This document shows, one piece after another, positions 1,444-36,769 of a stretch of 64,000 nt of DNA. The notes under the pieces are model-generated. The model had not been told where the DNA came from. It ran no database searches and saw only the letters and a program-made list of their open reading frames with translations. The DNA is from an uncultured SAR86 cluster bacterium (lineage in GTDB: Bacteria > Pseudomonadota > Gammaproteobacteria > Magnimaribacterales > D2472), in assembly GCA_902547295.1 (NCBI GenBank), contig CACCNJ010000006.1, positions 2,678 to 66,677 of the forward strand. Direction: 5' to 3'. How positions within the stretch are numbered: position 1 is the first letter of the stretch; every line of letters begins with the position of its first letter. The translations under genes were made by a program, and so were the position numbers.

Positions 1444-1445
1444 AA

Positions 1446-2300: not shown

Positions 2301-2362
2301 GATTTATTCTAACAATGAATTATTAATATTGGGTTAAAATAAATATATTTAAGCGAAGATAA

Positions 2363-3469
2363 TTGAAAAAATATTTAGACATTGTTAACGAAATTCATAA
2401 TTCTCCCTACAAGCTTACAATTGTATCTAGCGGAGGTGGAACTAATGCCATATCAGCTCTGCTAGAAGTTCCTGGAGCAAGTAATACTATTTTAGAGTCC
2501 CACATACCTTATTCAAAAGAATCTATGAACTCTTTTTTAAACAAAAAACCCGATCATTATTGTTCTTTAGATACATGTTTAAATATGGCAGCAAACGCAT
2601 TTAAGAAATCTAAACAAATTGATACCAAATCAAAAACAAAGCATCTATTAGGGATTTCTATTACAGCTAATCTTGCGACAACTTATGAAAAAAAAGGAGA
2701 TCATAAGTTTTTTATTGTTGTTCAGGCATATGACTATACTAAATATCTTGAATGTTATTTAGATAAAGGTAAAAGAACAAGAGAAGAGGAAGAAGAACTC
2801 ATTACTGCATGTGTTATTAGTCTTTTAGCAGATTCATGTGGTTTTGAATTTAGTATTCCTGAAATTGATGAAGATATATCAATAAATAAAGTTACTGCAG
2901 AAAAATCATGGATAAAATTATTTAATAACAAAGTAGGATTTATATCCAACAATAAGAACAACCCAGAGCTCATATTTCCTGGCTCATTTAACCCTCTTCA
3001 TGAGGGGCACATAAAAATGAAGGAATTAGCCGAAAAAAAAACTGGCATGCATACTACATTTGAGATCTGTGCTAACAATGCGGATAAGCCTCCACTTACA
3101 TTTTATGAGATAAAAAGAACTCTTGATCAGTTTCAAAATGATGAAAGTTGGATGCTTACATCTGCAGGAAGATTTAGTGAAAAAGCTGAAATGTTTCCAA
3201 ATTCAGTATTTATAATTGGTGCAGATACTTTAATGAGAGTATTTGATGAAAAATTTTATAAAAACTACAAAGACATGATGAATCATATTCAAAGGTTTAA
3301 TGATCACAACATAAACTTTTTAGTATTTGGAAGAAAAATTAATAAAGAATTTATCTCACTTAACAACTTAAAGGTTCCTGAAATTATAATCAATAGATGT
3401 ACTGGTATCGATGAAGAAATGTTTAGAGACGATATTTCTTCAACAGCAATTAGATTAACTAATAACTAA
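2363..3469 (+). CDS. fusion protein: CinA-C/PncC-like N-terminal domain plus NadD-like nucleotidyltransferase C-terminal domain
   Basis: TTG start. N-terminal SSGGGTNAISALLEVPGASNTILESHIPYS resembles the CinA C-terminal (NMN deamidase) signature. C-terminal GSFNPLHEGH (HxGH) and ISSTAIR (ISSTxxR) are cytidylyltransferase/NadD motifs. Confidence 0.6.
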   Translation: MKKYLDIVNEIHNSPYKLTIVSSGGGTNAISALLEVPGASNTILESHIPYSKESMNSFLNKKPDHYCSLDTCLNMAANAFKKSKQIDTKSKTKHLLGISITANLATTYEKKGDHKFFIVVQAYDYTKYLECYLDKGKRTREEEEELITACVISLLADSCGFEFSIPEIDEDISINKVTAEKSWIKLFNNKVGFISNNKNNPELIFPGSFNPLHEGHIKMKELAEKKTGMHTTFEICANNADKPPLTFYEIKRTLDQFQNDESWMLTSAGRFSEKAEMFPNSVFIIGADTLMRVFDEKFYKNYKDMMNHIQRFNDHNINFLVFGRKINKEFISLNNLKVPEIIINRCTGIDEEMFRDDISSTAIRLTNN

Positions 3470-3660
3470 TTATGAGGCGGCAATTTGGCTTCAACAAACC
3501 ATTCGTGGATTCTTTTTACAGGATTAAATTTCTTTAATCTCATTTTTCTATTTTCAAGAGTAAACTTTCTAGTTTTAATAGCTGTATAGTGATAGGTATG
3601 ACTATCACGAGTTTCGTTTTCAGGTATTAAATAAACTTTAGTTTGTTTTTTGTCTGCCAT
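3466..3660 (-). CDS. rpmG: ribosomal protein L33-like (divergent, Cys-less, stand-alone)
   Basis: HYTAIKTRKFTLENRKMRLKKFNPVKRIHEWFVEAKL aligns by eye with E. coli L33 [35 protein letters not shown]. It is 64 aa versus about 55 aa. Confidence 0.5.
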   Translation of the reverse strand: MADKKQTKVYLIPENETRDSHTYHYTAIKTRKFTLENRKMRLKKFNPVKRIHEWFVEAKLPPHN

Positions 3661-3717
3661 AATGGATTCAAATTATACACAATCTTTGCTTTTTAAGAGA
3701 TTTTATTTAAATAAAAT

Positions 3718-4623
3718 TTAATTATTTATTTTTTTATATAAATTTAAATTTCCATATAGTGGAGTTTTTTCCTTTGTAATAATTCCTATTGAAATTTTGT
3801 CAAGCATCAACTTATGAACATCATAGTGGCTCTTCATAAATAAATCGCAGAATTCATCTTTATTGATATTTGGATAAATTGTTCTTATTAGACTGCCAGC
3901 GAGTAAAATGCCATTTCCAGGAATAAAAGTTACTGCAAAATCTGTGAGAGATTCAGCAAGACATCTAATAAAGCCCTCAATCACCTCGATTGCAGTTGAG
4001 TCTTTCTCTTTATATTTTTTATATATTTCTTCTGAAGTTAAATTTATATTTTTTTTTAATTTATATATGTTTGATATAGCAGAGCCAGAAATGAAATCCT
4101 CTAGAAGAAAATTATCATCTGTCTGAATGTTATAGTTTTTTTGCATTTTAAGACTCATATTTGATGTTACGCCAATTTCAGTTGGTATCACTAAATCTTT
4201 ATTCACAAGTAGTGATGCTCCCAAGCCAGTTCCAGGACCCAAAAAAAAGACTTTTTCGTTAAACTTTTCGCCGGTTTTAATATAATCAATTTCATCTTTA
4301 ATGAAGCTATAGCTATGAGCAATTGCTTCCCAGTCATTTAATAAAATGCAATTCTTAAGATTAAATTTACTTTTAAGCTTAGAAGCATCAAAAGTAAAAT
4401 CAATTTTTGACATTTTTATAGAGTGATCATTTATTTTTGGTCCTGCGATAGAAATTATCAAAGTATCAACATTATTATTTTTGATTAAATCGCTAATAAT
4501 TTCTTCAAAATTGTCACTCTCGAATATGATTTTATTTGAATTAGATAAATCATCTTTTTCTATTGATGCCAATGCATATCTCATGTTGGTCCCGCCAACA
4601 TCTATTAATAATGCTTTACTCAT
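3718..4623 (-). CDS. glk: glucokinase
   Basis: LLIDVGGTNMRYAL ATP-binding motif and ROK/glucokinase-like GPGTGLG. I prefer the Met at 4623 (MSKALLIDVGGTN) over the ORF-track start at 4683, which would overlap the upstream gene by 68 nt. Confidence 0.85.
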   Translation of the reverse strand: MSKALLIDVGGTNMRYALASIEKDDLSNSNKIIFESDNFEEIISDLIKNNNVDTLIISIAGPKINDHSIKMSKIDFTFDASKLKSKFNLKNCILLNDWEAIAHSYSFIKDEIDYIKTGEKFNEKVFFLGPGTGLGASLLVNKDLVIPTEIGVTSNMSLKMQKNYNIQTDDNFLLEDFISGSAISNIYKLKKNINLTSEEIYKKYKEKDSTAIEVIEGFIRCLAESLTDFAVTFIPGNGILLAGSLIRTIYPNINKDEFCDLFMKSHYDVHKLMLDKISIGIITKEKTPLYGNLNLYKKINN

Positions 4624-6490
4624 ATTGATTTTTATAGGACAAACCATACCCATATTTAAACTTTGGAAAATATTCTTTATCACTATAATTATTTAGCTTA
4701 TTTCCTGAATTACTATTAGGCCATGAAAATGAAAGCCTACCCTTAAAATCAAAATTAATAGAGCCATCAAGATTGGTAAAGATTACGTCATTAATACCTT
4801 CAACAGCAGTTCCAGGCAACCAAATTGAAATAAATGAGTCTGAGTATTCAATTTCTTCGTCAACAATCAATGGCCTGCCTGTTAAAAATAAAGAAATTGT
4901 TGATATATTCTTTTTTCTAAATTCTTTCATCTTGTTTATTAAGTATCTATTTGAATTAGAAAAGTTCAAATCATCAATATCTCCTTCTCCCTCAGCATAT
5001 GGGGTTTCACCATATACAAAAATTACATAATCAGGTTTTTGTAAAAATGAGCCGTCACTGGAAAATTCAACACTACCACCAAGATTAAGAATATGTTGTG
5101 ATAAAGAATCATAGATACTTTTTGTATTCGGAAAGTCTTCATTAGATAATGAAACTCCTTCCCAACTTTTTCCTTGCCAAGTAATAGTCCAGCCGCCCAT
5201 TTGATTTTCAATTTGTTTAGATTGATCTCCAATTATTAAAAAATTTTTTTTTGGATTCATAGGCAAAACATCATTATTTTTTAATAACACTAATGACTCT
5301 CTTACTGCTTGTCTTGCAAGATTTCTATGATCTGAATTACCAATATAATTATCCTGATAGGCATGAGGTAATCTGTTATCAAAAAGCCCAAGATGTTTTT
5401 TAACCTTTAAAATTCTTGAAACTGCATCGTTAAGTCTTTCTATTGGAATTATTCCTTTTTTAACTTGATCAAGAGTATTCCAATAAAGAGGTTCCCACTC
5501 TGTTGGCACCATAAATATATCAACACCGGCATTTAATGCTTGGGGACAATTTGCATCCTCGCAACCTGGTATTTGTCCATGCCCATTCCAGTCACCAACT
5601 ATAAATCCATCAAACTCCATTTGAGTTTTTAAAATTTCTGTTAATAAATATCTATCACCATGTAGCTTTTTGCCATTCCAAGAATTGAAACTTGCCATTA
5701 TTGATAATGCACAAGAATCAATTGCATCAAAATATGGAGTGCCATGAATCTCTTTAAGCTCAGACTCTGTAATTATTGTGTTACCTTGATCTATTCCTTG
5801 ATCAGTTCCACCATCACCCAAAAAATGTTTTGCAGTAGCTAAGACTTTATTTTTATTTAGGAAAGAATTCCCTTCGCCTTGTAAGCCAAGTATAAAGTTT
5901 GATCCCAACTCAGATACTAAATTATAGTTTTCAGAGTACCCTTCATATGTTCTTCCCCATCTATCGTTTTGAGGCACAGCAATTGTTGGAGCAAATGTCC
6001 ATATAATTCCTGTAGAAGCTACTTCTTTTGCAACGGCACTTCCGATCTCTTTAATCAAACTAGGATTTCTTGTTGATCCTAGACCAATATTATGAGGAAA
6101 AATAGTTGCGCCAATAACATTATTATGCCCATGAACAGCATCTGTACCCCAAAGAATTGGTATCTTAATCCCATCAACCTCCGGAGATGCATCGTAGTAA
6201 ATTTCACTCAAGTCTTTCCAATCTTGAATATCACTATTTTTATTTTGATTTGGAAATCCACCCCCGCCATTTAGAATGGTACCTAGGTGGAATTTTTTTA
6301 CTTGAGCCGGATTAATACTATTAATTTCAGGCATTATTATCTGTCCAACTTTTTGTTCCAATGTCATTTCATTGATTATTTTATTTATGAAAGCTGAATA
6401 ATCTGGAAGTTTGCATTCGTTAGTATTTGACCAATCAACATCAGCAACAATATACGAATTGAATAAAATTAATAATAATATCTTTTTCAT
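4616..6490 (-). CDS. periplasmic glycoside hydrolase family 3 beta-glucosidase
   Basis: Signal peptide. GH3 motifs GTDAVHGHNNV and GFIVGDW (nucleophile Asp). Length 624 aa. Confidence 0.9.
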   Translation of the reverse strand: MKKILLLILFNSYIVADVDWSNTNECKLPDYSAFINKIINEMTLEQKVGQIIMPEINSINPAQVKKFHLGTILNGGGGFPNQNKNSDIQDWKDLSEIYYDASPEVDGIKIPILWGTDAVHGHNNVIGATIFPHNIGLGSTRNPSLIKEIGSAVAKEVASTGIIWTFAPTIAVPQNDRWGRTYEGYSENYNLVSELGSNFILGLQGEGNSFLNKNKVLATAKHFLGDGGTDQGIDQGNTIITESELKEIHGTPYFDAIDSCALSIMASFNSWNGKKLHGDRYLLTEILKTQMEFDGFIVGDWNGHGQIPGCEDANCPQALNAGVDIFMVPTEWEPLYWNTLDQVKKGIIPIERLNDAVSRILKVKKHLGLFDNRLPHAYQDNYIGNSDHRNLARQAVRESLVLLKNNDVLPMNPKKNFLIIGDQSKQIENQMGGWTITWQGKSWEGVSLSNEDFPNTKSIYDSLSQHILNLGGSVEFSSDGSFLQKPDYVIFVYGETPYAEGEGDIDDLNFSNSNRYLINKMKEFRKKNISTISLFLTGRPLIVDEEIEYSDSFISIWLPGTAVEGINDVIFTNLDGSINFDFKGRLSFSWPNSNSGNKLNNYSDKEYFPKFKYGYGLSYKNQYE

Positions 6491-6496
6491 AAACTT

Positions 6497-8071
6497 TTAT
6501 CCCAAAGTCACATAAATCAAAGTAAGAATACTTACGATAATTAAACTATTAACATTAAAGGCTTTTGATGTTTTAAAATTTATTCCACTCAAATCAATAG
6601 CTTTTTCTTGATCCAAATATCCTTGAGCCAATGATGTTAGGTAACATCCCATTCCTGAAACAAAGAAAACAACGCCCATTCTGTGGATATATGGGAAATC
6701 TGGAAAGGATGCTTGGATGAATATAGACATTACAACTGAAAGAATTGCTGCCACAAGAACTGAGAGAGTTGTAGCTTTTTTCCAAAATAAAGCCACAAGA
6801 AATATTACAAGTATTCCAGGTGTAAATAAGCCAGTAAAATTTTGTATATATTGAAAAATTTGATCGGAGTTTCCTAAGATAGGTTTTGCCATTACTAGGG
6901 CTATAAGCATAGATCCAACCACAGCACTTCTTCCAATTAATATTAAAGATGACTGTTGAATTTCATTTTTAGAAAATGATCTACATATATCCATCGTGAA
7001 AATAGTACTAATACTATTTGTCATTGATGCTAATGAAGATACTATTGCAGCAATTAGTGCAGCAAAAGTTAATCCTAATAAACCACTTGGTAGTAGCTCA
7101 ATCATCATAGTTGGATATGCTTGATCAGTCTTGTCTAAAACCGGAAATAAAATTGCGGCACAAATTCCTGGTAAAACTATTACTAATGGCATTAAAAGTT
7201 TTAGGTAAGCTGCAAACAAAACTCCCTTTTGTGCTTCTTTAAGAGATTTAGCTCCAAGAGCTCTTTGAGTAATATATTGATTGAATCCCCAATAAGCAAA
7301 ATGCCCAATCCAAACTCCTGCACCAATTAAAATCCATATCCCAGGTAAATTATTGTATGACGGATTGTCAGGAGACAATATCATGTCAAACTTTTCTGGC
7401 ATCTGTTGATAAACTTGAACCATTCCGGTGGTTATATTTCCATCACCAATTTTAGTCAAAGCAATATATGAGACTGCTAATCCACCAAAAATTAACAAAA
7501 CTACTTGAACTATATCAGTCATTGCTACGGCTTTAAGCCCTCCTGAAAGTGAGTATGCTAATGATAAAAATGCAAGAAGAATCATTCCATTAACTAAAGA
7601 CATTCCTGTCAAAGTATTTATTGCTAATGAACCAAGCCAAAGAACTGCGGTAAGGTTTACAAAAATGTACACAGTTAACCAAAAAAATGACAAAACCAAA
7701 CTTACTCTTTTATCAAATCTTTGTTCCAAAAATTGTGGCATTGTATATATTTTCTTTTCCAAGAAAAGCGGTAAGAAAAATTTAGCCATTACTATAAGGG
7801 CAATTGCTGCAGTGAGTTCCCATACTGCAATTGCCATTCCAACAACAAATCCTTGACCAGACATTCCAATAATTTGCTCTGCGGATATATTTGCAGCAAT
7901 TAATGAAGCTCCTATTGCCCACCACGGTAGAGATCTTCCTGCAAGAAAATAATCCTCAGCACTCCTTTCAGATCCAGCTTTTTTTCTAGAAATATAAGTA
8001 GCAAGTGAAATTATACCGATACAATAAAGCCCAATGATTATCCAATCTAAAGTGTAAAACATGATCCCCAA
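6497..8071 (-). CDS. sodium:solute symporter family (SGLT-like) transporter
   Basis: Polytopic protein of about 13 TM helices. Has the N-terminal YFLAGRSLPWWAIGASLIAANISAEQ SSS signature. Confidence 0.9.
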   Translation of the reverse strand: MGIMFYTLDWIIIGLYCIGIISLATYISRKKAGSERSAEDYFLAGRSLPWWAIGASLIAANISAEQIIGMSGQGFVVGMAIAVWELTAAIALIVMAKFFLPLFLEKKIYTMPQFLEQRFDKRVSLVLSFFWLTVYIFVNLTAVLWLGSLAINTLTGMSLVNGMILLAFLSLAYSLSGGLKAVAMTDIVQVVLLIFGGLAVSYIALTKIGDGNITTGMVQVYQQMPEKFDMILSPDNPSYNNLPGIWILIGAGVWIGHFAYWGFNQYITQRALGAKSLKEAQKGVLFAAYLKLLMPLVIVLPGICAAILFPVLDKTDQAYPTMMIELLPSGLLGLTFAALIAAIVSSLASMTNSISTIFTMDICRSFSKNEIQQSSLILIGRSAVVGSMLIALVMAKPILGNSDQIFQYIQNFTGLFTPGILVIFLVALFWKKATTLSVLVAAILSVVMSIFIQASFPDFPYIHRMGVVFFVSGMGCYLTSLAQGYLDQEKAIDLSGINFKTSKAFNVNSLIIVSILTLIYVTLG

Positions 8072-8121
8072 TTAATATGACGTATGTACTTATTGTAACA
8101 ATTTATTGGTAAAAAAATTAT

Positions 8122-9531
8122 CTAAAAATTAATTATTTGAATTGCTTCTGAATGTTTTTCAGAGAATATGCCAGAAACCATAACAAATTTTAATTTCTTT
8201 TTTCTGTGTAATGGTTTTAGAACATCTCTAACATGCTCAAGAGTCTTTTTGTGATTATTTAATCTCTTTAAATAGAAAGGAATGACTGAGCCAACTAGAG
8301 ACAATTGATTTAAAGTGTTTATATTATTGGTAAATGTATAGATTGGAATATCTTTTGGTTTTGCATTTGATATATAACCAGCAGTTGATCCAGTTCTTGT
8401 AACAGCAATTATTCCATCAGCTTTTATAGATTCACTTAAGTCTCTAGCAGCAACAGCAATTGACTCCCAATCTGAGTTTGTGATGAGTTCTTTTTCATAT
8501 TCTAAAGTTTGAAATTTTTCTGTTCTTTTAGATATAGATTTTAAATATTTCACACATTCAACTGGATATTTACCGATACTAGTTTCTCCAGATAGCATGA
8601 TGGCGTCAGCACCTTCATATACAGCATTTGCAACATCAGTTACCTCTGCTCTTGTTGGTGTTGGGTTTTCTATCATTGATTCTAGCAAATGAGTAGCAAC
8701 GATGGATCTTTTGCCCCATTTTGCACAAGAATGCATTATTTGTCTTTGAATATTTGGTAAGTCTGTAAGGCTAGTTTCAATTCCTAAATCACCTCTTGCT
8801 ACCATAATGCCCCAAGCAGATTCACAAATTTCATCAATATTATCTAATCCCTCTTGATTTTCAATCTTAGCAATTATTTTTGACTCTGATTTTTGTTTAA
8901 AAAGAAGGTCTTCTAATATCCTAAGATCTTTTTTATTTCTGACAAATGAAGCAGCAATAAAATCTACATTATTTTTAATTCCAAAGGAAATATCTTTTAT
9001 ATCTTTTGAAGTTATTGAGGGCATATCTAATCTTACGCCGGGCAAATTTACATGTCTTTTTGAGCCTACCTTTCCTCCATGTATTACTTTACAAACTAAA
9101 TTATCTGATTCTTTTGAAAGAACTCTAAAACTAATCAATCCATTATCAACAGAGATCCTTGAGCCAACATCAACACTATGAACTAGACCTTTATAATTTA
9201 CTTTGATAGATGAGGTTTCAACGTCTATCTCATCTCGGACAGTTAATGTAACTTTATCACCTACTTTGAGATTGATTGGAAGAGAGGTATCACCTGTTCT
9301 TATTTCTGGACCTTGAGTATCAAGCAATATGCCAATGTTAGATAACTTACTATTTTTGGTCTCATTAATACTTTTAATTATATCTATAATCTCTTTTGCA
9401 TTTTTATGAGTTGCATGGGACATATTAATTCTAGCAACATTCATACCAGCAGAATGAAGTCTACATAATGTTGCATTATTAGAGCTCTGCGGTCCAATAG
9501 TGCAAATTATTTTTGTTCTTGTAAAAGCCAT
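8122..9531 (-). CDS. pyk: pyruvate kinase
   Basis: MAFTRTKIICTIGP, ARINMSH, MVARGDLGIE and LSGETS motifs. Length 469 aa. Confidence 0.95.
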   Translation of the reverse strand: MAFTRTKIICTIGPQSSNNATLCRLHSAGMNVARINMSHATHKNAKEIIDIIKSINETKNSKLSNIGILLDTQGPEIRTGDTSLPINLKVGDKVTLTVRDEIDVETSSIKVNYKGLVHSVDVGSRISVDNGLISFRVLSKESDNLVCKVIHGGKVGSKRHVNLPGVRLDMPSITSKDIKDISFGIKNNVDFIAASFVRNKKDLRILEDLLFKQKSESKIIAKIENQEGLDNIDEICESAWGIMVARGDLGIETSLTDLPNIQRQIMHSCAKWGKRSIVATHLLESMIENPTPTRAEVTDVANAVYEGADAIMLSGETSIGKYPVECVKYLKSISKRTEKFQTLEYEKELITNSDWESIAVAARDLSESIKADGIIAVTRTGSTAGYISNAKPKDIPIYTFTNNINTLNQLSLVGSVIPFYLKRLNNHKKTLEHVRDVLKPLHRKKKLKFVMVSGIFSEKHSEAIQIINF

Positions 9532-9571
9532 GACATGACGATATTAATGAATAAATAACATTTTGCAAGAC

Positions 9572-9598
9572 AAAAAAAACAGAGACTAGCTCTGTTTC
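9572..9598 (-). terminator. intrinsic terminator or attenuator ending the GC-rich RNA element, about 40 nt upstream of the pyk ATG
   Basis: The minus strand reads AACAGAG-CUAGU-CUCUGUU followed by U8. Confidence 0.6.
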
Positions 9599-9795
9599 TT
9601 TAAATCGATTCCTCAGGGGTCTAAAGTGAGATTTTCTTTAGCTCCTTGGACTCTTTCTCTTGAATCCTTGGTGGATCTGCAAGCTATTTTTTATCATCGA
9701 CTCTTGCAAATGCTTTCACCCTTCGGTCTCTCCGTCCGGCTTCCCTCTAGACCTCCCGTCTGCAGTTGGTAGCTAGTCAGTTGCCATCCGTACAT
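9572..9795 (-). ncRNA. unclassified structured RNA candidate (independent sRNA or riboswitch-like leader of the pyk operon)
   Basis: No ORF. About 50% G+C (70/140 counted over 9641-9780) in a genome of about 33% G+C. Bracketed by a near-consensus promoter and a terminator. Contains mutually exclusive helices. Confidence 0.45.
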
Positions 9796-9798
9796 TTA

Positions 9799-9826
9799 AT
9801 ATTACTCTTACTAGATCAGATGTCAA
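9799..9826 (-). promoter_or_regulatory. sigma70-type promoter for the GC-rich RNA element
   Basis: Minus strand has TTGACA (9821-9826), a 16-nt spacer, then TAATAT (9799-9804). Confidence 0.55.
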
Positions 9827-9865
9827 CACTTTTTTTTAAATAAATTTAATTTTTTTTAGTCTAAG

Positions 9866-9893
9866 AAAATAAAAAAGGGAGTTAAAAACTCCC
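9866..9893 (-). terminator. intrinsic terminator of the 9915-10667 gene
   Basis: Minus strand has GGGAG-N7-CUCCC followed by a U-rich run. Confidence 0.6.
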
Positions 9894-9914
9894 TTAAATT
9901 AATGAAGCAATATT

Positions 9915-10667
9915 TTAATTCTTGACGGGCACTATACTGTAAGATCGTTCGTTTTCACAAACACCACCAAGTTCTTCGAGAGCTTTAAGCTCCGGCATCT
10001 CTCCTGCTTGATCTGACCAAAAATTTGTCCAATTTTTACCGTAATCAGCTATTGTTGATGTTGTGACTAATTGCACATAGTCATAATCCCAGTTAGAGCT
10101 TGTTCCTGCTCCTGGAAAAATCATTTTTCTTCCAGCTACATCACCAAGTTCTTTTGCTGCTTTTGCATATGCATAATATGCGTTATATACATCTTCTGAG
10201 GTAACTCCTTCTCCCAATTTGCAGTCACTATAAACTGCATAGCTAGCTTGACCATCTGGAGTTTCTGAAACTGTTCTTTGCCATGTAAAAATTGCTTGAT
10301 TTCCAGACTCAAGAATTGTATTAAGTTCTGCTTGAAGTTTCTGACCATTATTAATCCAATAATCATTGCCGCCATAATGTGCTTCAGGATTTGGACTTAT
10401 GCCAACCCAAACAAAATCATGAGGCAATTCGCCAGAATGATAATATGGAACCAACATTGCAGATCTATAATCTTTAAGTGCTTCACTTTCTTCAGCCCAT
10501 TTAGTCCACTTTGCGGCCCATTTCATCATATCATCCATATCCTTACCTTCTTTAAAAGAACTAACATAGTACTCAGCTACATTTGGCTCATAACCTGATG
10601 ATTCAACATGATCATCGGCTATAACTACAAAACTGAAGAGCAAAGATATACTTAAAAGTAATTTCAT
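9915..10667 (-). CDS. secreted protein of unknown function, tandem ~100-aa repeat (paralog family member 1)
   Basis: Signal peptide MKLLLSISLLFSFVVIADD. Shares motifs with the 11770 and 25638 ORFs, for example YAYAKAAKELGDVAG versus AAYAKAYSKVTKAQEEAGNVAG. Confidence 0.6.
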   Translation of the reverse strand: MKLLLSISLLFSFVVIADDHVESSGYEPNVAEYYVSSFKEGKDMDDMMKWAAKWTKWAEESEALKDYRSAMLVPYYHSGELPHDFVWVGISPNPEAHYGGNDYWINNGQKLQAELNTILESGNQAIFTWQRTVSETPDGQASYAVYSDCKLGEGVTSEDVYNAYYAYAKAAKELGDVAGRKMIFPGAGTSSNWDYDYVQLVTTSTIADYGKNWTNFWSDQAGEMPELKALEELGGVCENERSYSIVPVKN

Positions 10668-10749
10668 AATTATCTCCCTATTATTTAAATACTTCTAATA
10701 TATCATCAAGATTTAACTTTTTAATTAAAATTATGTATTTTTTTTGTAA

Positions 10750-11697
10750 CTATTCTAGCAAACCATAAATGTTATATTTAGAAACAAAATCCCAAATCTC
10801 AGAAGATGCATTAACATTGTATGATTGCGTTGTTGGCCAATCGTGTCCCATTTCTGGATGAAGAATTAATTTAACATTTACATTATTTATACATTTTATA
10901 TATGTTTCATATGAAACTAATGAATAATTATCATATTTAATAATTGTATCTGGATCATCACCACAAGAGTTATAGTTCACCCAATAATCAATTACATCAG
11001 GAATACTTTTTGATCCTGCATTTCCATCATATGGAACAACAAAGTCTAACAATCCATGAATTTGTAAGATAGGTGTTGGATGCATTGGATTACAATCATC
11101 ATAAGTACCATTTGTCATTGATCCAGTTACTGATGCTATAGCTGCAAATTTACTACTAAGATTACAAGCTAAATGATATCCCATATATCCTCCATTAGAC
11201 ATTCCAGATGAATATATTCTTGTCTCATCTATTTCAATTTTATCTTCAACCAAACGAATAATTGTATCTACGAAATCGAGGTCATCAATTGTGCTTTTAG
11301 ATGTCCAACCACCTACATTCCAGTGCGAAGACAATGAAGCAGTTGTTGCCCCTTGAGGATAAACAACTATAAAATTCTCAGAATCTGCTAATAAAAAATA
11401 ATTCGTGTAACTTAAATGTCTCATTGCTGAAGAGCCATAACCATGAAAAGCAAATAAAACTGGAATACTCTCGTTTGTATTTAGATTATTTGGAATGTAG
11501 ATATAGTAAAATCTATCTAAGTTATCATGCTTTAGATCACATCTCTTCATCCCAGATCTGCTTGTATCAATACATGTTTCATTAAAAGAATTATTGTCTG
11601 TTTCAAGAGATATACTTACATCTTCCGATCCTGAGGAGCCACCGCCTCCACATGATGACAATATTAAAATTAACAAAGCTAATTGATAAGTTTTCAC
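10750..11697 (-). CDS. lipoprotein esterase (PHB-depolymerase/feruloyl-esterase-like, COG3509-type)
   Basis: Lipobox LSSC followed by GGGG. FAFHGYGSS oxyanion region, GMSNGGYM nucleophile elbow and an HPEMGHDWP motif. Confidence 0.7.
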   Translation of the reverse strand: MKTYQLALLILILSSCGGGGSSGSEDVSISLETDNNSFNETCIDTSRSGMKRCDLKHDNLDRFYYIYIPNNLNTNESIPVLFAFHGYGSSAMRHLSYTNYFLLADSENFIVVYPQGATTASLSSHWNVGGWTSKSTIDDLDFVDTIIRLVEDKIEIDETRIYSSGMSNGGYMGYHLACNLSSKFAAIASVTGSMTNGTYDDCNPMHPTPILQIHGLLDFVVPYDGNAGSKSIPDVIDYWVNYNSCGDDPDTIIKYDNYSLVSYETYIKCINNVNVKLILHPEMGHDWPTTQSYNVNASSEIWDFVSKYNIYGLLE

Positions 11698-11723
11698 ATC
11701 TACATATTAAAGCAGTAAATTTA

Positions 11724-11750
11724 ATAAAAAAAGGGAGCATAATACTCCCT
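11724..11750 (-). terminator. intrinsic terminator of the 11770-12477 gene
   Basis: AGGGAG-N7-CUCCCU followed by a U run on the minus strand. Design is nearly identical to the terminator at 9866-9893. Confidence 0.6.
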
Positions 11751-11769
11751 CAAAAAAGATAATTTAATC

Positions 11770-12477
11770 TCAGTTCGAGTTATAGACTTTGACAGTTTGA
11801 ATTATTGAAATATTTCTAATTTCTCTATTACCATCAACCTCTTTTGAGAACTCAGCAAATGAATCGCTTGAATATAATGTTTCAGCAGATTGCATTGCTT
11901 CTGTCATACTTCCTGCGCCAGTAAATGCATAATGAGTGTAATAATTAACACTACCACCCATTTGTGCTCTTAAGCCATAACTTCCAGCAACATTTCCAGC
12001 CTCTTCTTGAGCTTTAGTTACTTTGGAATATGCCTTAGCATAAGCAGCAGCATCATCAACTTTCATTCTATAAACAGTATAAACCTGATTATTTTCTGGT
12101 TCATAATTTCCACCGCTTATGAGCTTCATGTTTAAAGATTGCTCAACAGGCTCAAGTAAACTCGCTGTTTGTGCTAAATGAGCCTGAAATATTGGATCAG
12201 AAAATGATTCTGTTCCTTTACCAAGACTTTCAGTATCCTCATAGTTTAAAACAACCATATGAGTAGCATCATCATAACCATTGAAAACATATTGATGTAA
12301 ATTTACGACTGCTGGAAATGATTTGCCCCAATCAGAATCCATTAATTCATCTAAAGCCTTAACATACTCTGATGGATTTGAAACAGTAAAAGAATAAGTC
12401 GCTATATACCCAGCAGCGAACACTGACTGTGTACTAACAAAAAATAAAGCTAAAAAACTATAAATAAATTTTTTCAT
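11770..12477 (-). CDS. secreted protein of unknown function, tandem repeat (paralog family member 2)
   Basis: Signal peptide ending VFA-AG. Contains two internally similar ~100-aa modules. Confidence 0.6.
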   Translation of the reverse strand: MKKFIYSFLALFFVSTQSVFAAGYIATYSFTVSNPSEYVKALDELMDSDWGKSFPAVVNLHQYVFNGYDDATHMVVLNYEDTESLGKGTESFSDPIFQAHLAQTASLLEPVEQSLNMKLISGGNYEPENNQVYTVYRMKVDDAAAYAKAYSKVTKAQEEAGNVAGSYGLRAQMGGSVNYYTHYAFTGAGSMTEAMQSAETLYSSDSFAEFSKEVDGNREIRNISIIQTVKVYNSN

Positions 12478-12560
12478 AAATTTCTCCTATTAATGATATT
12501 AATATAGCAAAGTTTTTCAGAAGAAATTTAATAATTATGTATATTTTTTAATTATAAAAA

Positions 12561-12636
12561 TGGTGCGGTACGCCGGTCTCGAACCGGCGGCCTTCTGCTT
12601 GGCAAGCAGACGCTCTACCAACTGAGCTAGTACCGC
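12561..12636 (-). tRNA. tRNA-Gly (anticodon GCC)
   Basis: The reverse complement folds as GCGGTAC/GTACCGC acceptor stem, anticodon loop UUGCCAA, T-loop TTCGAGA and an encoded CCA. Length 76 nt. Confidence 0.95.
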
Positions 12637-12647
12637 ATTGGAGGGTT

Positions 12648-12676
12648 AATATACTCTTTTAAATGACTGCTTTCAA
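12648..12676 (-). promoter_or_regulatory. sigma70-type promoter for tRNA-Gly
   Basis: Minus strand has TTGAAA, a 17-nt spacer and TATATT, ending about 11 nt before the tRNA 5' end. Confidence 0.5.
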
Positions 12677-12693
12677 CAGGTTAAATTTAGATG

Positions 12694-13164
12694 TTACTGA
12701 ATTGATATTTCTTGTATATCCTTTAACTTTCCGTTGAGATCTCTCTTAGAAATAATGAAAGATGTTGGTTCGATATGAAGAGGAATAGCTACTTCTATTT
12801 TAGCTGAAGAGACTGGCCCACCCATATATTCTCTATCCTCATAGCCAATGTGTTGATAATTGGCATAAAAAGGATTACCAATACCCAATGTATAGATAAA
12901 TTTATTCTCTTTACCAAAAACTTTTATCGCATAGGCGTCTTCATCAGTTAAAAACTTAATCTTCTTAAGGGTCCTTTCTTTTGGCTTATCTATTGTAATT
13001 TTATCTATTGAAAAACTTTCTGGGGATCCATCAAAAATAATAATGTAAGAATCGTTGAAAGGATTAGCATGAATCTTATTTAACTGCTTAATACCTATTT
13101 CTTCATTAGAATAAATTATTAGAGGTATTGCGAAAATTAATGCAAGTAAAACTTTAATATTCAT
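12694..13164 (-). CDS. small secreted protein of unknown function, translationally coupled to the M64-like lipoprotein gene
   Basis: The MNIKVLLALIFAIPLIIYS signal begins 2 nt after the upstream TAA. The ORF-track start at 13182 would overlap the upstream gene. Confidence 0.55.
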   Translation of the reverse strand: MNIKVLLALIFAIPLIIYSNEEIGIKQLNKIHANPFNDSYIIIFDGSPESFSIDKITIDKPKERTLKKIKFLTDEDAYAIKVFGKENKFIYTLGIGNPFYANYQHIGYEDREYMGGPVSSAKIEVAIPLHIEPTSFIISKRDLNGKLKDIQEISIQ

Positions 13165-13166
13165 AG

Positions 13167-15212
13167 TTACCATCTCGCCCAATTAATGCCCCAGGTACCT
13201 CCCATTGGGCCATTAATATAACCATAATCATATTGAGTTCTATCGGTAGGATTGTAGCCCCATTGCTCAGTCTCGTAATCATACCAATAGAAGTCAGAGT
13301 TGAATAAACCTTCATAAAAATCTTCAATATCAGTTACATCATCTGGAGCCGTTACAGTTCCTGTTAAATCATCCACCCTCCATGTATAAACTTTTACAGA
13401 ATTATCAGATGGCCTATTAAATGTAACTTGAGTTTTATTTTCTAAAGATGGGTCTTCAACACCATCTACGAACCATTTTAACCTTAGTTTAGAAGTGTCA
13501 TATTCAACATCTATATCAATGTCAAATCCAGATCTTATTCCATTTGTATCTTCTGTGAATCCTACATCATCACCATACACAAAACCTTGATTATGAATTG
13601 AACCTATAGCAAAACCCTCAACATTAACCTCTCCATACTGATCAGTATTAACTTCCATAATTGTTAAAAATTTAGGCCTAAAGTTATCATATTCACCATA
13701 GTAATTTCCTTCAAAAAGACCGACTTGATTACATTCAGGATTTCTTCCTGTTCTGTTTCCATTGGCGTCATAAACGTTGTATAGACAATCGCAAGTCTCA
13801 GGATCTGTTTCATCCTCATAAAGTCCTAAGGAACCATCTGACCAGTTGTAACAAACTTTAAAATTTTTTCCAGCAACATTTGTTAAATCATTAATATGAT
13901 GTCTCCACTTAACCAAAGAAGGATCAGATTGAGTGGTGGTGTTAACATTTCTATCTGCCCAAAAACTAACATCCCTATCATCGTCAGTTATATATTCATC
14001 TCCCATCTCACCATGAGCATGTCCTAGTTCATGCATTAAAACATAATCAGTTCTGGAACTGATTGGTTGAATGTTTGTATTTCCAAGATTAACACCTCTT
14101 CCATCTATGGTTGTCAAAACAGAAACTAAATCATTATCTTCAAAAAGATCATCAAAAACAGACATATTAATGTCACTGGAACCAATACAATAAACATCTT
14201 CATCCCAGTCATAACATCCTGTTTCAATTGAAGCTAAAGAAGTTCCATCAGGAGTTACAGGTTCTGCAACTATAATATCAAAATACCCTGCAAAAAATTC
14301 AGATACATCTGAATCATTCAAAGCATTTATTGAGTTCAATAATGCATCCCTAAAACTTTGTAAGTCAGATACAGAACCATCATTAGAATCTTCATCAAGC
14401 GAATCTGCAACAAATAAATAGTCTGTTCTTCCAAAAGTTGAGCCACCTCCAATAAGATAATATAAATAATAATCTTTGTTAGTAGTCGAGCCTGAATCAA
14501 AACCATCACTTTTATCATCATCCATTGCTACGGTAACTATCTTCTTATCTGCAATAAACCATGTGTTAAAAAAATCTGATGAAGAGTCAACTCCATCAGA
14601 AATTATAATTTCTGCTCGAAAAAATCCCGCACTTTGAAGAGAAGATAAGTCTAGAGTGATTTCTGCAGAACCAGCTTCTGTAGATATAGATGAAGTTGGT
14701 ACGTTGATATCATTAACTGTTGCTGAAAATGTTAAATCTGCTTCTTCATTATCAACATCTGAAAAATTAACTGTAAATTTTGGATTTGATTCAAATATTA
14801 AATGATTTTTATCTAGATCGGTCTTTGAAGACATTATGATTTCTGGAGAATCATTAACAGCATTAACGGTAATTGTTACAGTAGAACTTCTTGTAATATT
14901 TTTTTCAACTGCTGTAACTGAATATGTAAAATTATCAATACCGTTAAAATTTAAACTAGGTGTATAAGTAATTTCAGCATTTTCTGAAAAGACTAAAGCG
15001 CCATTTGATGGAGAGCTAGTTAGAGAATATTGAAGAGTAACAACTTCATTTGCACTTGCAGCCATTGATCCAGAATATGATGTATCTTCATTAGTTAAAA
15101 AAGAATTTTGTGCAAGCGTTAAGGCAAATGGTACTTTTGTTCCTCCGCCGCCACCTCCGCCACCACAGGAAGCAATAAAGACTAATAAAATAAAATATTT
15201 TAAGAAATGCAT
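13167..15212 (-). CDS. outer-membrane lipoprotein: cadherin/Ig-like repeat(s) plus M64-like zinc metallopeptidase domain
   Basis: Lipobox IASC followed by eight Gly. Cadherin-like repeat ending ITVNAVNDSPE. Zincin motif MHELGHAHGEMGDEY (HExxH...DEY, as in the IgA-peptidase M64 family). Confidence 0.7.
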   Translation of the reverse strand: MHFLKYFILLVFIASCGGGGGGGGTKVPFALTLAQNSFLTNEDTSYSGSMAASANEVVTLQYSLTSSPSNGALVFSENAEITYTPSLNFNGIDNFTYSVTAVEKNITRSSTVTITVNAVNDSPEIIMSSKTDLDKNHLIFESNPKFTVNFSDVDNEEADLTFSATVNDINVPTSSISTEAGSAEITLDLSSLQSAGFFRAEIIISDGVDSSSDFFNTWFIADKKIVTVAMDDDKSDGFDSGSTTNKDYYLYYLIGGGSTFGRTDYLFVADSLDEDSNDGSVSDLQSFRDALLNSINALNDSDVSEFFAGYFDIIVAEPVTPDGTSLASIETGCYDWDEDVYCIGSSDINMSVFDDLFEDNDLVSVLTTIDGRGVNLGNTNIQPISSRTDYVLMHELGHAHGEMGDEYITDDDRDVSFWADRNVNTTTQSDPSLVKWRHHINDLTNVAGKNFKVCYNWSDGSLGLYEDETDPETCDCLYNVYDANGNRTGRNPECNQVGLFEGNYYGEYDNFRPKFLTIMEVNTDQYGEVNVEGFAIGSIHNQGFVYGDDVGFTEDTNGIRSGFDIDIDVEYDTSKLRLKWFVDGVEDPSLENKTQVTFNRPSDNSVKVYTWRVDDLTGTVTAPDDVTDIEDFYEGLFNSDFYWYDYETEQWGYNPTDRTQYDYGYINGPMGGTWGINWARW

Positions 15213-15226
15213 AGTTAATTATATAT

Positions 15227-15254
15227 AAAAAAAGAGGGCCAAAGCCCTCTTTTT
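15227..15254 (-). terminator. intrinsic (bidirectional-looking) terminator after the TonB-dependent receptor gene
   Basis: GAGGGC-caaa-GCCCTC hairpin flanked by A7 and T5 runs. Confidence 0.65.
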
Positions 15255-15272
15255 ATTATATTTTGAGTGTTT

Positions 15273-18230
15273 TTAAAACTTATATCTAAAACCTAGCCTA
15301 TGAATTGGTCCATGATCTTGAGATAAAAATAACATCTCTTGGTATCGAGCATACAATCTCGTAGGTTCATCATTTAAGTTTTGAACTTCAAAGAACACAA
15401 CTGCATCCTCATTTATGTTATAAGCCATAGAAAGATCCCATTGTTTTCTTTCTTCAACATATAGCGGTTGATCATAGTTACCAAAACCAGCAACTGTTTC
15501 ACCTCTAGTATTTAAAGCAATTCTTGCTGTAACTTTTGAATCTTCGTAAAAGAGTGAAAAGTTACTTGAATCACCCAAACCGGGCAATATAAATTGACGA
15601 CTTAATTCGTTTCTATCTATATCGACGTCACCACCTGAAACAAATGTTGCATTAATTTGAGTACCAAACCCAGTATCACCAAATAAGTGTTGAAGAACAA
15701 CTTCAAAACCGTCAACAGAACCAGATTCAAGATTTAATGGTCTTGTGATTTCAAATATTGCCAAAGGGTCTGAACTTGTTCCATCTAAATATCCAGGTTC
15801 GCATCTCCACCAACCATCATAATCACATTGTCCCCAAGGGAAACCATTTGTTACATCCACACCTCTAGACATTGCAACTGCGACCCAACCCATATGCTGA
15901 TATAAATTCATCCAAGATTGAGACCATAAAGCCTGTTGTGATACACAATCACCAGACCCCCATTCGCCTGGGAATCCAGGATCAGGTCTTCCAGCTGCAT
16001 CCCATGCTTGCACACATGCTTGTGCATATGCTCCAATTTCACCATTTGCAGGATTCGTTAAAGTATCAATTGTGCCGGTTGAGACATCCGAACTTATAAA
16101 ATTATCAATATCTTTTTTAAAGTAATTTAAAGAAAAGTAACTACCTTCGTCATAATAATATTCATATGCAAGATCGATATTTTCTGATTCAAGAGGCTCA
16201 AGACCTGGGTTACCACCTGAAGCTGTTGGAATTAAATAATCTCTATTCCCAAATTGAAATGAGCTTCTTAAATCTTGTAAAGAAGGTCTTCCCATTGATT
16301 TTCCGTAACTAAATCTTAAAACTTGATCATCAGATAATTCATAAGCCATTGCCAATTGAGGTAAAACAATATCATTAGAACCTGATCTAGCAGCAGCAAC
16401 TTCACCACCATTAGGGTAAATAAGACCATTAATCATATCCCACCTAATAACAGAAGGTGTTGCCTCAAGAGCTGTTGAAGTTGTTTCCGATTCCTCATAT
16501 CTAACTCCAGCAACCACATTAAGCGGCCTATCATTAAAGATAAATTCCATGTTAACCTGAACAAAAACTGCATCTAGCGTTTCCTCAACTTTATCATTAA
16601 CATCAATTGGTCCCGCTGTTATTGCTCCAAAATTTGAAATCCATTCATCGATGGCAACATTTTTATTTATGTCAAAATAGTATGAAGTTAATAAGTCGAC
16701 ATCAAATCCACTCATAAATCCTGCTAAATGAGTTTCAGTAAAAATTGATGAGCTAGCAGCTGTATTTGGAGTGGCATTATTAATCTCTTCATTTCTGATA
16801 TCATTAAATTCAGAATCAGCTCTGGAAATCCCAAATTCAACTGATTTAATAGCGTCACTTATCTTTCCATCTAAGTTTTCCCATTTTCCTTTTAGCTGCA
16901 TTTGTTCCATTTGATTTTCTTTAAATGCGTCTCTGTAATAAAGAGAACCATACATAAAATCATCAGCATCAAATTTAGTATCATATGCAAAGGTATTTAT
17001 ACCTGAAGTGCCTCCATTGTAATGACTAATAGTTGCAGTTGCTGGTGTAGCAAACCCCATTTCATTTGGAAGTTCTGTACCTGTTTTCTCTGCAGATGAA
17101 TCATGAAAATCAAACACAAATGATAATGTATCTGAATAATTCCAATCTAGATTAAAACCTACAGAAGCGTTCTCATTCTCTGTATCTCCCCATATTAGTT
17201 GATGATCATAACCTCTATCTCCAACTACAACATCAGTATAAACACCATTTTTATTAATAGTAGCTTGGGTAGTTGTCCATCCACCCAGCCAAGATCCAAA
17301 CATCTGACCAACTGAACTAAACTCAACTTTTGAGTATGTATAATCAACTGTTGCAATTAAGTTATCTGAAAAAGCATACTGCATTGTTAACTGAGCATTA
17401 GTTCTTTCTCTATCATTTTCTTTTATTTGATATGCAGAAGGTTCTTGATAAAAAGTCTTTCCGTCAGCGCGTTGATTATTGTTTGTTACTCCAGCAGCAG
17501 TTTTGTCAACCCTGGAATATCCTTCGATTGCAGCTAGATCCTCGACAGTAATCCAGTTTGATTCTCTTGTACCCTCTTCAACATTATTTCTATCTTGAAA
17601 AGATCCAGATATTGCAAAACCAAAATTACCAAAATTAGAACTATGAACAAAATTAAATTCTGGTTTTAAACCATCACTACTTGTTGAATCATCTAAAACA
17701 TCAACAGAAAATGAATTTAACGAACCGTTAATTGATAATGGTTTTGTTGTAACCATATTTATTGTTGATCCAATTCCACCAGAAGGTAATGAGCTATTTG
17801 TGGACTTATAAACTTCAACAGCTGAAATACCATGAGAGGAAATGTCTCCAAAATTAAAGGATCTTCCACCACCCCATTGACCAGGAACAGTTGGCATCTG
17901 GCGACCATTTAGAGTAACTAAGTTTAGTTCAGGGCCAAAACCTCTTACAGCAACTCTCTCACCCTCGACATTACTTCTATCAATACCAATACCAACAACT
18001 CTTGCTAGCGATTCAGCTAAATTATTGTCAGGAAATTTACCAAAATCTTCAGCAGTAATGGCATCAACGACACCAACATTGCTTCTTTTTATGTCAATAG
18101 CACTAATTAAGCTCTTCTTAATTCCAGTAACAACAACTTCTTCTATTTCATCCTCACCTTCGTTGTCTTGAGCAACAACAAAAATAGATAAAGGAAGCAT
18201 TAATATTAATGATAGTAAATACTTTTTCAC
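15273..18230 (-). CDS. TonB-dependent outer-membrane receptor
   Basis: Signal peptide. Plug-domain motifs EEVVVTGIK, DAITAEDFGKFPDNNLAESLARVVG and VRGFGPE. C-terminal ...GFRYKF. I prefer the GTG at 18230, which is preceded by GGGGG, over the ATG at 18266. Confidence 0.9.
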   Translation of the reverse strand: MKKYLLSLILMLPLSIFVVAQDNEGEDEIEEVVVTGIKKSLISAIDIKRSNVGVVDAITAEDFGKFPDNNLAESLARVVGIGIDRSNVEGERVAVRGFGPELNLVTLNGRQMPTVPGQWGGGRSFNFGDISSHGISAVEVYKSTNSSLPSGGIGSTINMVTTKPLSINGSLNSFSVDVLDDSTSSDGLKPEFNFVHSSNFGNFGFAISGSFQDRNNVEEGTRESNWITVEDLAAIEGYSRVDKTAAGVTNNNQRADGKTFYQEPSAYQIKENDRERTNAQLTMQYAFSDNLIATVDYTYSKVEFSSVGQMFGSWLGGWTTTQATINKNGVYTDVVVGDRGYDHQLIWGDTENENASVGFNLDWNYSDTLSFVFDFHDSSAEKTGTELPNEMGFATPATATISHYNGGTSGINTFAYDTKFDADDFMYGSLYYRDAFKENQMEQMQLKGKWENLDGKISDAIKSVEFGISRADSEFNDIRNEEINNATPNTAASSSIFTETHLAGFMSGFDVDLLTSYYFDINKNVAIDEWISNFGAITAGPIDVNDKVEETLDAVFVQVNMEFIFNDRPLNVVAGVRYEESETTSTALEATPSVIRWDMINGLIYPNGGEVAAARSGSNDIVLPQLAMAYELSDDQVLRFSYGKSMGRPSLQDLRSSFQFGNRDYLIPTASGGNPGLEPLESENIDLAYEYYYDEGSYFSLNYFKKDIDNFISSDVSTGTIDTLTNPANGEIGAYAQACVQAWDAAGRPDPGFPGEWGSGDCVSQQALWSQSWMNLYQHMGWVAVAMSRGVDVTNGFPWGQCDYDGWWRCEPGYLDGTSSDPLAIFEITRPLNLESGSVDGFEVVLQHLFGDTGFGTQINATFVSGGDVDIDRNELSRQFILPGLGDSSNFSLFYEDSKVTARIALNTRGETVAGFGNYDQPLYVEERKQWDLSMAYNINEDAVVFFEVQNLNDEPTRLYARYQEMLFLSQDHGPIHRLGFRYKF

Positions 18231-18264
18231 GATTACCCCCCTAGGCATGCATTTGTGTAAACTC

Positions 18265-18293
18265 ATTAAACGAATTTGAGTCTTCTATGTCAA
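18265..18293 (-). promoter_or_regulatory. sigma70-type promoter for the TonB-dependent receptor
   Basis: Minus strand has TTGACA (18288-18293), a 17-nt spacer, then TTTAAT (18265-18270). Confidence 0.45.
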
Positions 18294-29767: not shown

Positions 29768-29843
<76 letters not shown>

Positions 29844-36684: not shown

Positions 36685-36769
36685 GCCCCATTGGCGGAAT
36701 TGGTAGACGCGCGCGATTCAAAATCGCGTTCTTTCGGGAGTATCTGTTCGACTCAGATATGGGGCACCA
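36685..36769 (+). tRNA. tRNA-Leu (anticodon CAA)
   Basis: GCCCCAT/ATGGGGC acceptor stem, D-arm GGCGGAATTGGTAGACGC, anticodon loop TTCAAAA, long variable arm and encoded CCA. Length 85 nt. Confidence 0.95.

Follow-up and report, generated by a model that had tools for sequence, protein, structure and literature searches.

The 64,000-nucleotide (nt) stretch analysed here, referred to as the window, comes from an uncultured SAR86 cluster bacterium (assembly GCA_902547295.1, contig CACCNJ010000006.1, forward-strand positions 2,678 to 66,677). On its minus strand a 383-nt intergenic gap (9532-9914) lies between a 250-aa open reading frame (ORF; 10667..9915, stop codon included) and the ATG of pyk (9531), and the pyk operon encodes pyruvate kinase, a sodium:solute symporter, a GH3 glycosidase and glucokinase. 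An earlier note, made from the letters of this DNA and a list of its ORFs, had placed an orphan structured RNA or a riboswitch-like leader of the operon in this gap. Our analysis indicates that positions 9857-9572 of the minus strand very probably constitute a complete, self-contained and stand-alone gene for an IMES-1 RNA (Rfam family RF02034), with a predicted transcript of about 220 nt including its terminator. The gap and the start of pyk contain the following features:

9865..9895, minus strand: intrinsic terminator of the upstream 250-aa gene, detected by a terminator scan (9-bp hairpin, stem 9895-9875, T-rich tail)
9830..9857, minus strand: phased A/T tract AAAAAAAAUUAAAUUUAUUUAAAAAAAA, directly upstream of the -35 hexamer and conserved across copies
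9799..9826, minus strand: sigma-70-type promoter (TTGACA 9826-9821, 16 nt, TAATAT 9804-9799)
9787..9793, minus strand: predicted 5' end of the transcript (start at about 9793-9791, placed by the spacing from the -10 hexamer) and two extra base pairs of helix P1
9595..9786, minus strand: IMES-1 RNA body, defined by the match to Rfam RF02034 and by covariation
9572..9596, minus strand: IMES-1 intrinsic terminator (AACAGAG-CUAGU-CUCUGUU running into U8)
9529..9568, minus strand: promoter-like element of pyk, outside the RNA (TTGCAA 9568-9563, 16 nt, TAATAT 9546-9541)

Organization of the locus

The anatomy drawn in the earlier note held up: the extent of the gap, the names of the operon genes, the positions of both terminators and of the promoter, and the G+C count were all recovered as given there. 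The predicted terminator of the upstream gene (AAGGGAGUU-UUU-AACUCCCUU followed by a U-rich tail) lies outside the IMES-1 unit and sets its upstream limit; homology among the copies described below begins only at about 9857. The hexamers of the IMES-1 promoter agree with the consensus at 10 of 12 positions in a promoter scan. The arms of the IMES-1 terminator are AACAGAG (9596-9590) and CUCUGUU (9584-9578), the eight T residues occupy 9579-9572, and the ATG of pyk follows 40 nt further on. Exactly 70 of the 140 nt between 9641 and 9780 are G or C (50%), compared with a mean of 32.3% and a standard deviation of 5.3% for 140-nt segments of the window, only 0.03% of which reach 50%. A protein-coding reading of the region was rejected, as the sole ORF of at least 40 aa within the gap is a 48-aa ORF with a GTG start on the opposite strand (9626-9772), and no start codon follows the motif AAGGAGC.

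The element is a full-length member of the IMES-1 family

In a scan of the whole window at the Rfam gathering thresholds, RF02034, the IMES-1 RNA motif, was the only match other than tRNAs. It covers 9786-9595 on the minus strand and model positions 1-191 of 191, with a score of 189.1 bits (2.3 times the gathering score of 81) and an E-value of 1.1e-42. No other family came near its threshold in a permissive scan of 9400-10000, the next best match scoring 23.6 bits against a threshold of 40. The element is thus not an orphan but a member of a known RNA family, of a class that is already catalogued, only as a motif without an attached function. The earlier note had proposed that a confident Rfam hit to a known housekeeping RNA would make the element known rather than novel. 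The match makes it known, and the housekeeping part of that statement applies in spirit only, IMES-1 having no known housekeeping function.

Its recurrence in other genomes, the Rfam E-value and the z-score of its fold (see below) show that the element is not a product of chance, and a misassembly of the region is unlikely because a sequence 99.8-99.9% identical is present in an independent assembly. The window copy shares with the IMES-1 family the helices, the invariant loops, the marine source and the stand-alone type 'Gene'. The Rfam model ends short of features that are present in all copies studied here, namely two 5' base pairs of P1, the intrinsic terminator and the promoter with its A/T tract. 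IMES-1 is reported from Weinberg, Perreault, Meyer & Breaker 2009 Nature 462:656 and also from Shi, Tyson & DeLong 2009 Nature 459:266 (both references as given in the review PMC8049014), and the review credits the two studies with the finding of abundant noncoding RNAs in marine metatranscriptomes. What the present analysis adds from public genomes is incremental: the assignment to SAR86 hosts, the multi-copy arrangement, the gene contexts and the anatomy of the gene. A full-text search of the available literature found no papers discussing IMES-1.

The IMES-1 fold is maintained by compensatory changes

The RNA consists of two domains. The 5' domain is formed by P1 and the hairpin P1b with the invariant loop CAACUGCAGACGG, whereas in the 3' domain helix P2 closes a junction from which P3, P4 and P5 branch off and whose strands GGGUGAAAGC, CCACCAAG and AAGGAGC are invariant. 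Two alignments were analysed. The first, A1, is a sequence-only MAFFT alignment of 64 genome copies onto which the Rfam structure, two extra P1 pairs and the terminator were mapped. In A1, 91.4% of the cells were paired, compared with 30-51% when the 3' partners were slid by 1-3 columns. Double changes occurred in 24 of the 44 pairs, and the covariation score was 0.317 versus 0.137 in shuffled alignments, none of 500 shuffles reaching the observed value. For the second alignment, A2, a covariance model built from A1 was run on the window and on 99 metagenome loci that had played no part in its construction, which yielded 105 matches (104 from metagenomes plus the window copy). Here 92.5% of the cells were paired, 31 of the 44 pairs showed double changes, and the score was 0.348 versus 0.127 (again 0 of 500 shuffles). 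The consensus helices P1, P1b, P2, P3, P4 and P5 are therefore formed and kept by compensatory changes in both alignments, and the covariation that the earlier note had suggested looking for in SAR86 relatives is present for the Rfam helices.

The individual helices differed in their behaviour. P3, P4 and P5 were 94-100% paired with abundant compensatory change, and the two central pairs of the long-range helix P2 were mostly unpaired. The terminator stem was 100% paired and essentially invariant, with at most G-U wobble at its edges. The minimum free energy (MFE) fold of the window copy alone gave the same helices at -61.5 kcal/mol (z = -2.67 relative to shuffled sequences). Outside the Rfam model, C9790 and G9789 form two extra P1 pairs with C9728 and G9727; at one of these positions 55 of 57 sequences have CG, and at the other CG, GC, UG and UA all occur. 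Both covary in A2 and appear in the MFE fold, and they fit a start of transcription at about 9793-9791.

Sequence conservation is not confined to the helices. In the SAR86 copies the unpaired segments CAACUGCAGACGG, GGGUGAAAGC, the A-rich loop of P3, CCACCAAG, AAGAGAAAG, AAGGAGC and AAUCUCAC are invariant, and almost all unpaired positions are unchanged in the high-scoring SAR86 copies, whereas the flanking DNA of these species is only 74-91% identical. The exception to this invariance is the loop of the 5' domain in a divergent subgroup of metagenome copies. These keep the 3' junction domain and the terminator and have a different 5' domain, in which AACUUAAGACGCAGAAAG replaces CAACUGCAGACGG; their Rfam scores are 91-125 bits. 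In our numbering of loci (L followed by a number) the subgroup comprises L138 (5674-5904), L156 (1975-2205), L160 (2767-2997), L105 (5350-5582), L135, L098, L104, L162 and L189. The retention of the 3' domain and terminator in this subgroup, despite its different 5' domain, suggests that constraint on IMES-1 is strongest in the 3' junction domain. Several contigs of this subgroup also carry tRNA genes a few kb from IMES-1.

IMES-1 genes are found mainly in SAR86 and are often multi-copy

Relatives were collected by an exact-pattern scan of one genome per GTDB species, which gave 66 loci, 64 of them genuine. The matches L025 (Anaerolineae) and L029 (Armatimonadia) lacked promoter and terminator and were dropped as chance hits. 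A hidden Markov model search of the genome loci raised the number of copies to 73 in 56 genomes, mostly single-cell or metagenome-assembled ones, and 12 of these 56 carry at least two copies. A metagenome scan with a pattern of the 3' domain on contigs of at least 1 kb gave at least 120 contigs with at least 126 copies. SAR86 genomes and marine metagenomes together supplied at least about 190 further copies.

Most of the 64 genuine genome matches are labelled SAR86, about 12 carry generic Gammaproteobacteria or Proteobacteria labels, and three are labelled otherwise (Pseudohongiella, Neomarinimicrobiota, Woeseiaceae). These last three copies have the full unit. For the Neomarinimicrobiota copy (L023) we infer a binning or labelling problem, because its downstream gene for pyruvate dehydrogenase (PDH) E1 is shared with SAR86-labelled copies and its IMES-1 is nearly identical to theirs; the same is suspected for the Pseudohongiella and Woeseiaceae labels. 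The window itself is 91-93% identical to contigs from SAR86-labelled single-amplified and metagenome-assembled genomes. A phage origin was also considered and rejected, the 3'-domain pattern giving one match only in the viral contigs of IMG/VR, to a copy truncated at a contig end.

The unit common to the copies is about 290 nt long and consists of the A/T tract, TTGACA, a -10 hexamer (TAATAT here; TATATT, TATTAT or similar elsewhere), the five-helix RNA, the ACAGAG/CUCUGU hairpin and a run of 7-9 U. Its spacing is fixed. In 63 of the 64 genuine copies TTGAC lies at -59 (+/-1) from the invariant AACTGCAGACGG, the 64th (L051) being cut at a contig end, and in every uncut copy ACAGAG-loop-CUCUGU with T7-9 is found at +169 to +175 from the same anchor. 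Alignment of 65 copies on the -35 hexamer showed a conserved succession of A-run, T-run, and A-run plus GTG upstream of it. Between paralogues and between genomes, homology is confined to these roughly 290 nt, starting at the A/T tract and stopping right after the U-run.

Three genomes hold paralogues with 100% identity, a pattern consistent with gene conversion or with selection for dosage, and in six others the identity is 90-96%. In five of the six genomes with non-identical paralogues, each copy is closer to a copy of another species than to its own paralogue. In some SAR86 genomes IMES-1 genes stand in tandem at a distance of about 300 bp, or two copies are separated by about 1.2 kb with a patatin-like gene between them (paired copies: L027 2204-2753, L055 6476-7015, L062 2967-3490, L036 2820-4214, L064 5843-7233). 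Among the matches listed for metagenome loci L070-L189, 31 of the 45 truncated copies end exactly at a contig end, which indicates that the IMES-1 repeat regularly breaks short-read assemblies of SAR86.

Proposed mode of action

By analogy, the A/T tract probably works as an UP element, which would give the gene a very strong, rRNA-like promoter; the transcript would be released at its own terminator and act in trans. The most likely mode of action suggested by the conservation pattern is that of a folded particle which binds a protein or small ligand, as a scaffold or titrating RNA, and a simple antisense regulator appears less likely. The particle is favoured over a seed-pairing small RNA (sRNA) because nearly every unpaired nucleotide is invariant, rather than one seed region.

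Known RNAs with a comparable lifestyle are 6S RNA and CsrB, RsmY and RsmZ, which are likewise small, strongly promoted and independently terminated genes with conservation over the whole fold; the multi-copy state in some genomes is also reminiscent of CsrB/C and RsmX/Y/Z. The resemblance is limited to this general lifestyle. 6S RNA is a rod with a central bubble, which IMES-1 does not have, and the permissive Rfam scan of 9400-10000 gave no match to the 6S or Csr/Rsm families. A Csr/Rsm-type sponge was rejected because such RNAs expose many GGA motifs in hairpin loops, whereas IMES-1 has only one or two that are conserved (AAGGAGC, in the junction between P4 and P5, and AGGA, at the 3' end of P2), the other GGAs varying or sitting in stems.

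An Hfq-type base-pairing sRNA, in which one conserved loop would pair with translation-initiation regions of mRNAs and the rest would serve as a scaffold, seems to us rather unlikely, although several features would suit it. The gene is equipped with a promoter of its own, and each complete copy ends in a Rho-independent terminator that runs into seven or more U (T7-9). The stretch ahead of the terminator is rich in A and U, and the P4 loop CAAGAGAAAG can be read as three A-R-N triplets; the U8 tail together with this (ARN)3-like loop would also permit Hfq binding by a folded particle. Multi-copy paralogues are common among such sRNAs, Qrr and OmrA/B being examples. Speaking against this explanation, essentially all loops and junction strands are unchanged among species that share only 74-91% identity in their flanking DNA, a pattern uncommon among antisense sRNAs. 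Searches with tblastn found no genes for Hfq, CsrA or ProQ in the window and 68 loci, a set of 568 kb that is mostly SAR86-labelled and, amounting to less than whole genomes, says nothing for or against their presence in SAR86. In DNA of this amount a 13-mer with up to 2 mismatches would be expected to match about a dozen times by chance, so that complementarity would hardly single out true targets.

Gene contexts and transcription of pyk

For 69 copies the nearest ORF on each side was determined, the ORFs were clustered, and cluster representatives were named with Pfam. The downstream gene is co-oriented in 38 of 61 copies and convergent in 23, in more than a dozen different contexts. Co-oriented genes are pyk (20 copies), PDH E1 (6), an FAD monooxygenase (3), symporters, GMP reductase, a patatin-like gene and others; convergent ones are the oxaloacetate decarboxylase beta gene (OAD-beta; 11), an ADH-type oxidoreductase (3), the ammonium transporter Amt (3) and others. 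The commonest neighbour overall is an IDO-like gene (PF01231, E = 3.5e-86), which lies upstream in divergent orientation in 32 copies. Its start is about 120 nt from the RNA start (for example L001 1477-2619, L004, L006 and L014), so that its promoter must overlap the A/T tract of IMES-1.

Some observations weigh against a stand-alone, trans-acting RNA confined to SAR86: a majority of copies (38 of 61) do precede a co-oriented gene, the IMES-1 terminator has a short stem (7 bp, 3 G-C pairs) that makes read-through into pyk possible, and the restriction to SAR86 derives from exact-pattern scans, which are blind to divergent relatives. The ratio of 38 co-oriented to 23 convergent genes is unremarkable for bacterial neighbours.

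In the window, pyk appears to be served by a promoter of its own. The promoter-like element in the 40-nt spacer (TTGCAA-16-TAATAT) scores under the threshold of the promoter scan, and the ATG of pyk (9531-9529) follows 9 nt after its TAATAT without a Shine-Dalgarno sequence. The same layout, CTTGCA(A/T) ... TA..AT ... ATG, recurs in 11 of 17 pyk-context copies of other SAR86 species, which suggests that pyk has its own promoter in the spacer and a leaderless or nearly leaderless mRNA.

These data bear on the idea that the locus is a dual-purpose cassette, with a trans-acting IMES-1 RNA whose strong promoter and leaky terminator also supply much of the transcription of a co-oriented gene, often one at the pyruvate node. 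The weak terminator stem would allow this, the distance from the U-run to the start of pyk is 40-67 nt in 17 copies and that to PDH E1 63-86 nt in 6, and the neighbours are enriched for enzymes of pyruvate and glyoxylate metabolism (pyk, PDH E1, OAD-beta, malate synthase G). However, OAD-beta is convergent and cannot be served by read-through, co-orientation does not exceed the bacterial expectation, the conserved promoter-like element points to independent transcription of pyk, and the enrichment may stem from one ancestral locus reshuffled by recombination between copies. We therefore consider the cassette improbable, and infer that the position of IMES-1 before pyk reflects local genome arrangement and not regulation of pyk.

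IMES-1 is very probably not a leader of the pyk operon

The earlier note had favoured a riboswitch or attenuator, in which mutually exclusive helices would decide between termination at U8 and read-through into the pyk/symporter/GH3/glk operon. The resemblance to such leaders is real: the element precedes pyk on the same strand, with 40 nt separating its terminator from that gene, pyk is also the downstream gene in 20 of 61 copies of other genomes, and the junction-rich 3' domain with its invariant unpaired bases resembles an aptamer, so that a conserved junction-rich fold is followed by a terminator and, in this window, by a metabolic gene. The complementary segments named in the note, CUUUAGACC (9626-9618), GGUCUAGAG (9753-9745) and CUAAAG (9641-9636), do exist at these positions, and the local pairing of CUUUAG with CUAAAG corresponds to helix P5 of the Rfam model (98.5% paired, 3 compensatory pairs).

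The proposed switch helices did not fare as well in the 64 copies. The distal helix GGUCUAGAG:CUUUAGACC was paired in 75.7% of the cells with no compensatory pair, and 93 of 500 shuffles reached this pairing; GGUCU:AGACC was paired in 57% of the cells with a single compensatory pair, and 396 of 500 shuffles reached it. GGUCUAGAG and CUUUAGACC seem to be complementary in the window copy because each segment is conserved for a reason unrelated to this pairing. Moreover, the terminator overlaps no covarying helix, and the linker between it and P2 varies in sequence and length. Neither the covariation of alternative helices nor terminator overlap in the 64 copies thus gives supporting evidence for an expression platform.

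The gene contexts lead to the same result. The same promoter-RNA-terminator unit precedes unrelated genes, including an FAD monooxygenase downstream of a second copy in a sister genome (see below), and pyk has a promoter-like element of its own after the terminator. In 23 copies the unit faces a convergent gene, and a cis-regulator of pyk would not be expected to keep its promoter and terminator while pointing, at a distance of 10 nt, at the 3' end of such a gene. With neither a shared downstream gene, nor covarying alternative helices, nor an overlap of terminator and aptamer, as would be found in riboswitch and attenuator leaders, this explanation is largely refuted and very improbable. The independent sRNA that the earlier note had named as its fallback is the version favoured by the separate promoter and terminator and the many contexts.

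A sister genome with two IMES-1 copies

A pyk protein identical to that of the window is encoded on contig CACNPZ010000012.1 (L069) of assembly GCA_902622485.1, to which the window is 99.8-99.9% identical. L069 contains two direct IMES-1 copies, at 617-839 and 5770-5991, which enclose genes for the FAD monooxygenase, malate synthase G, a DUF1330 protein and the IDO-like protein. Positions 9555-10409 of the window align to 1-853 of L069 (98.2% identity) and 29-9857 to 5706-15534 (99.9%); the window has one IMES-1 copy, and a 5.15-kb block is missing. Compared with the sister copy next to pyk, the window shows 4 differences within 120 nt in the 5' part of the unit and 5 in the next 4.6 kb. Such a cluster is what a crossover inside the repeat would produce, and the window copy is apparently chimeric. 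The loss of the block is either a deletion by IMES-1 recombination in natural populations or an assembly collapse at the repeat. Arrangements of two copies 4-10 kb apart also occur in four other SAR86 species.

One could combine these observations into a picture in which IMES-1 is a ligand or protein binder that ties the growth state of SAR86 to the pyruvate node, its rRNA-strength promoter and leaky terminator co-drive pyk or PDH E1, and its copies act as recombination sites that switch the malate synthase/IDO-like block in and out within populations. We regard this combination as speculative and quite improbable. That IMES-1 is only a repeat, a mobile DNA element or a recombination site with incidental RNA structure is scarcely credible: the multiple copies, the sharply bounded 290-nt homology, the identical paralogues in three genomes, the 5.15-kb deletion or insertion between direct copies and the many metagenome contigs that break inside IMES-1 would suit it, but dozens of compensatory base-pair changes and a promoter and terminator conserved in the right order and spacing do not, the DNA next to the copies contains no transposase gene (this check did not extend to terminal inverted repeats or target-site duplications), and recombination between copies is expected of any repeated gene, as with rRNA operons.

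Significance and further observations

The window adds no new class of element. For a stand-alone IMES-1 gene it provides the full anatomy, that is, the promoter, the likely 5' end, the additional P1 pairs and the terminator, and further gains are the host assignment, the frequent multi-copy state and the argument against cis-regulation of pyk. PMC11582366 counts SAR86 among the most abundant bacteria of surface ocean waters and describes strain HIMB1674, a first isolate of the group; noncoding RNA, Hfq and CsrA are not mentioned there. If the HIMB1674 genome carries IMES-1, the function of the RNA would be experimentally testable.

The metagenome contig Ga0247592_1020895 (L086, minus strand) carries an IMES-1 fragment (449-640) lacking promoter and terminator, which is joined via GCGGCCGC, a NotI site, to a G+C-rich class A RNase P RNA (61-494, minus strand). 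This chimera looks like an artefact of a cDNA library or metatranscriptome and weakly hints at the existence of IMES-1 as an RNA. Weinberg et al. 2009 and Shi et al. 2009 are said to have found IMES-1 to be highly abundant in marine metatranscriptomes, coastal ones in the case of Weinberg.

Three tRNA genes are present in the window, Gly-GCC (12561-12636, minus strand), Glu-UUC (29768-29843, minus strand) and Leu-CAA (36685-36769, plus strand), of which the gathering-threshold Rfam scan reported only Gly-GCC and Glu-UUC. Apart from the tRNA-Glu region and the IMES-1 locus, the sole 140-nt stretch that reaches 50% G+C is located at 15950-16091, inside a 997-aa ORF (15273-18266).

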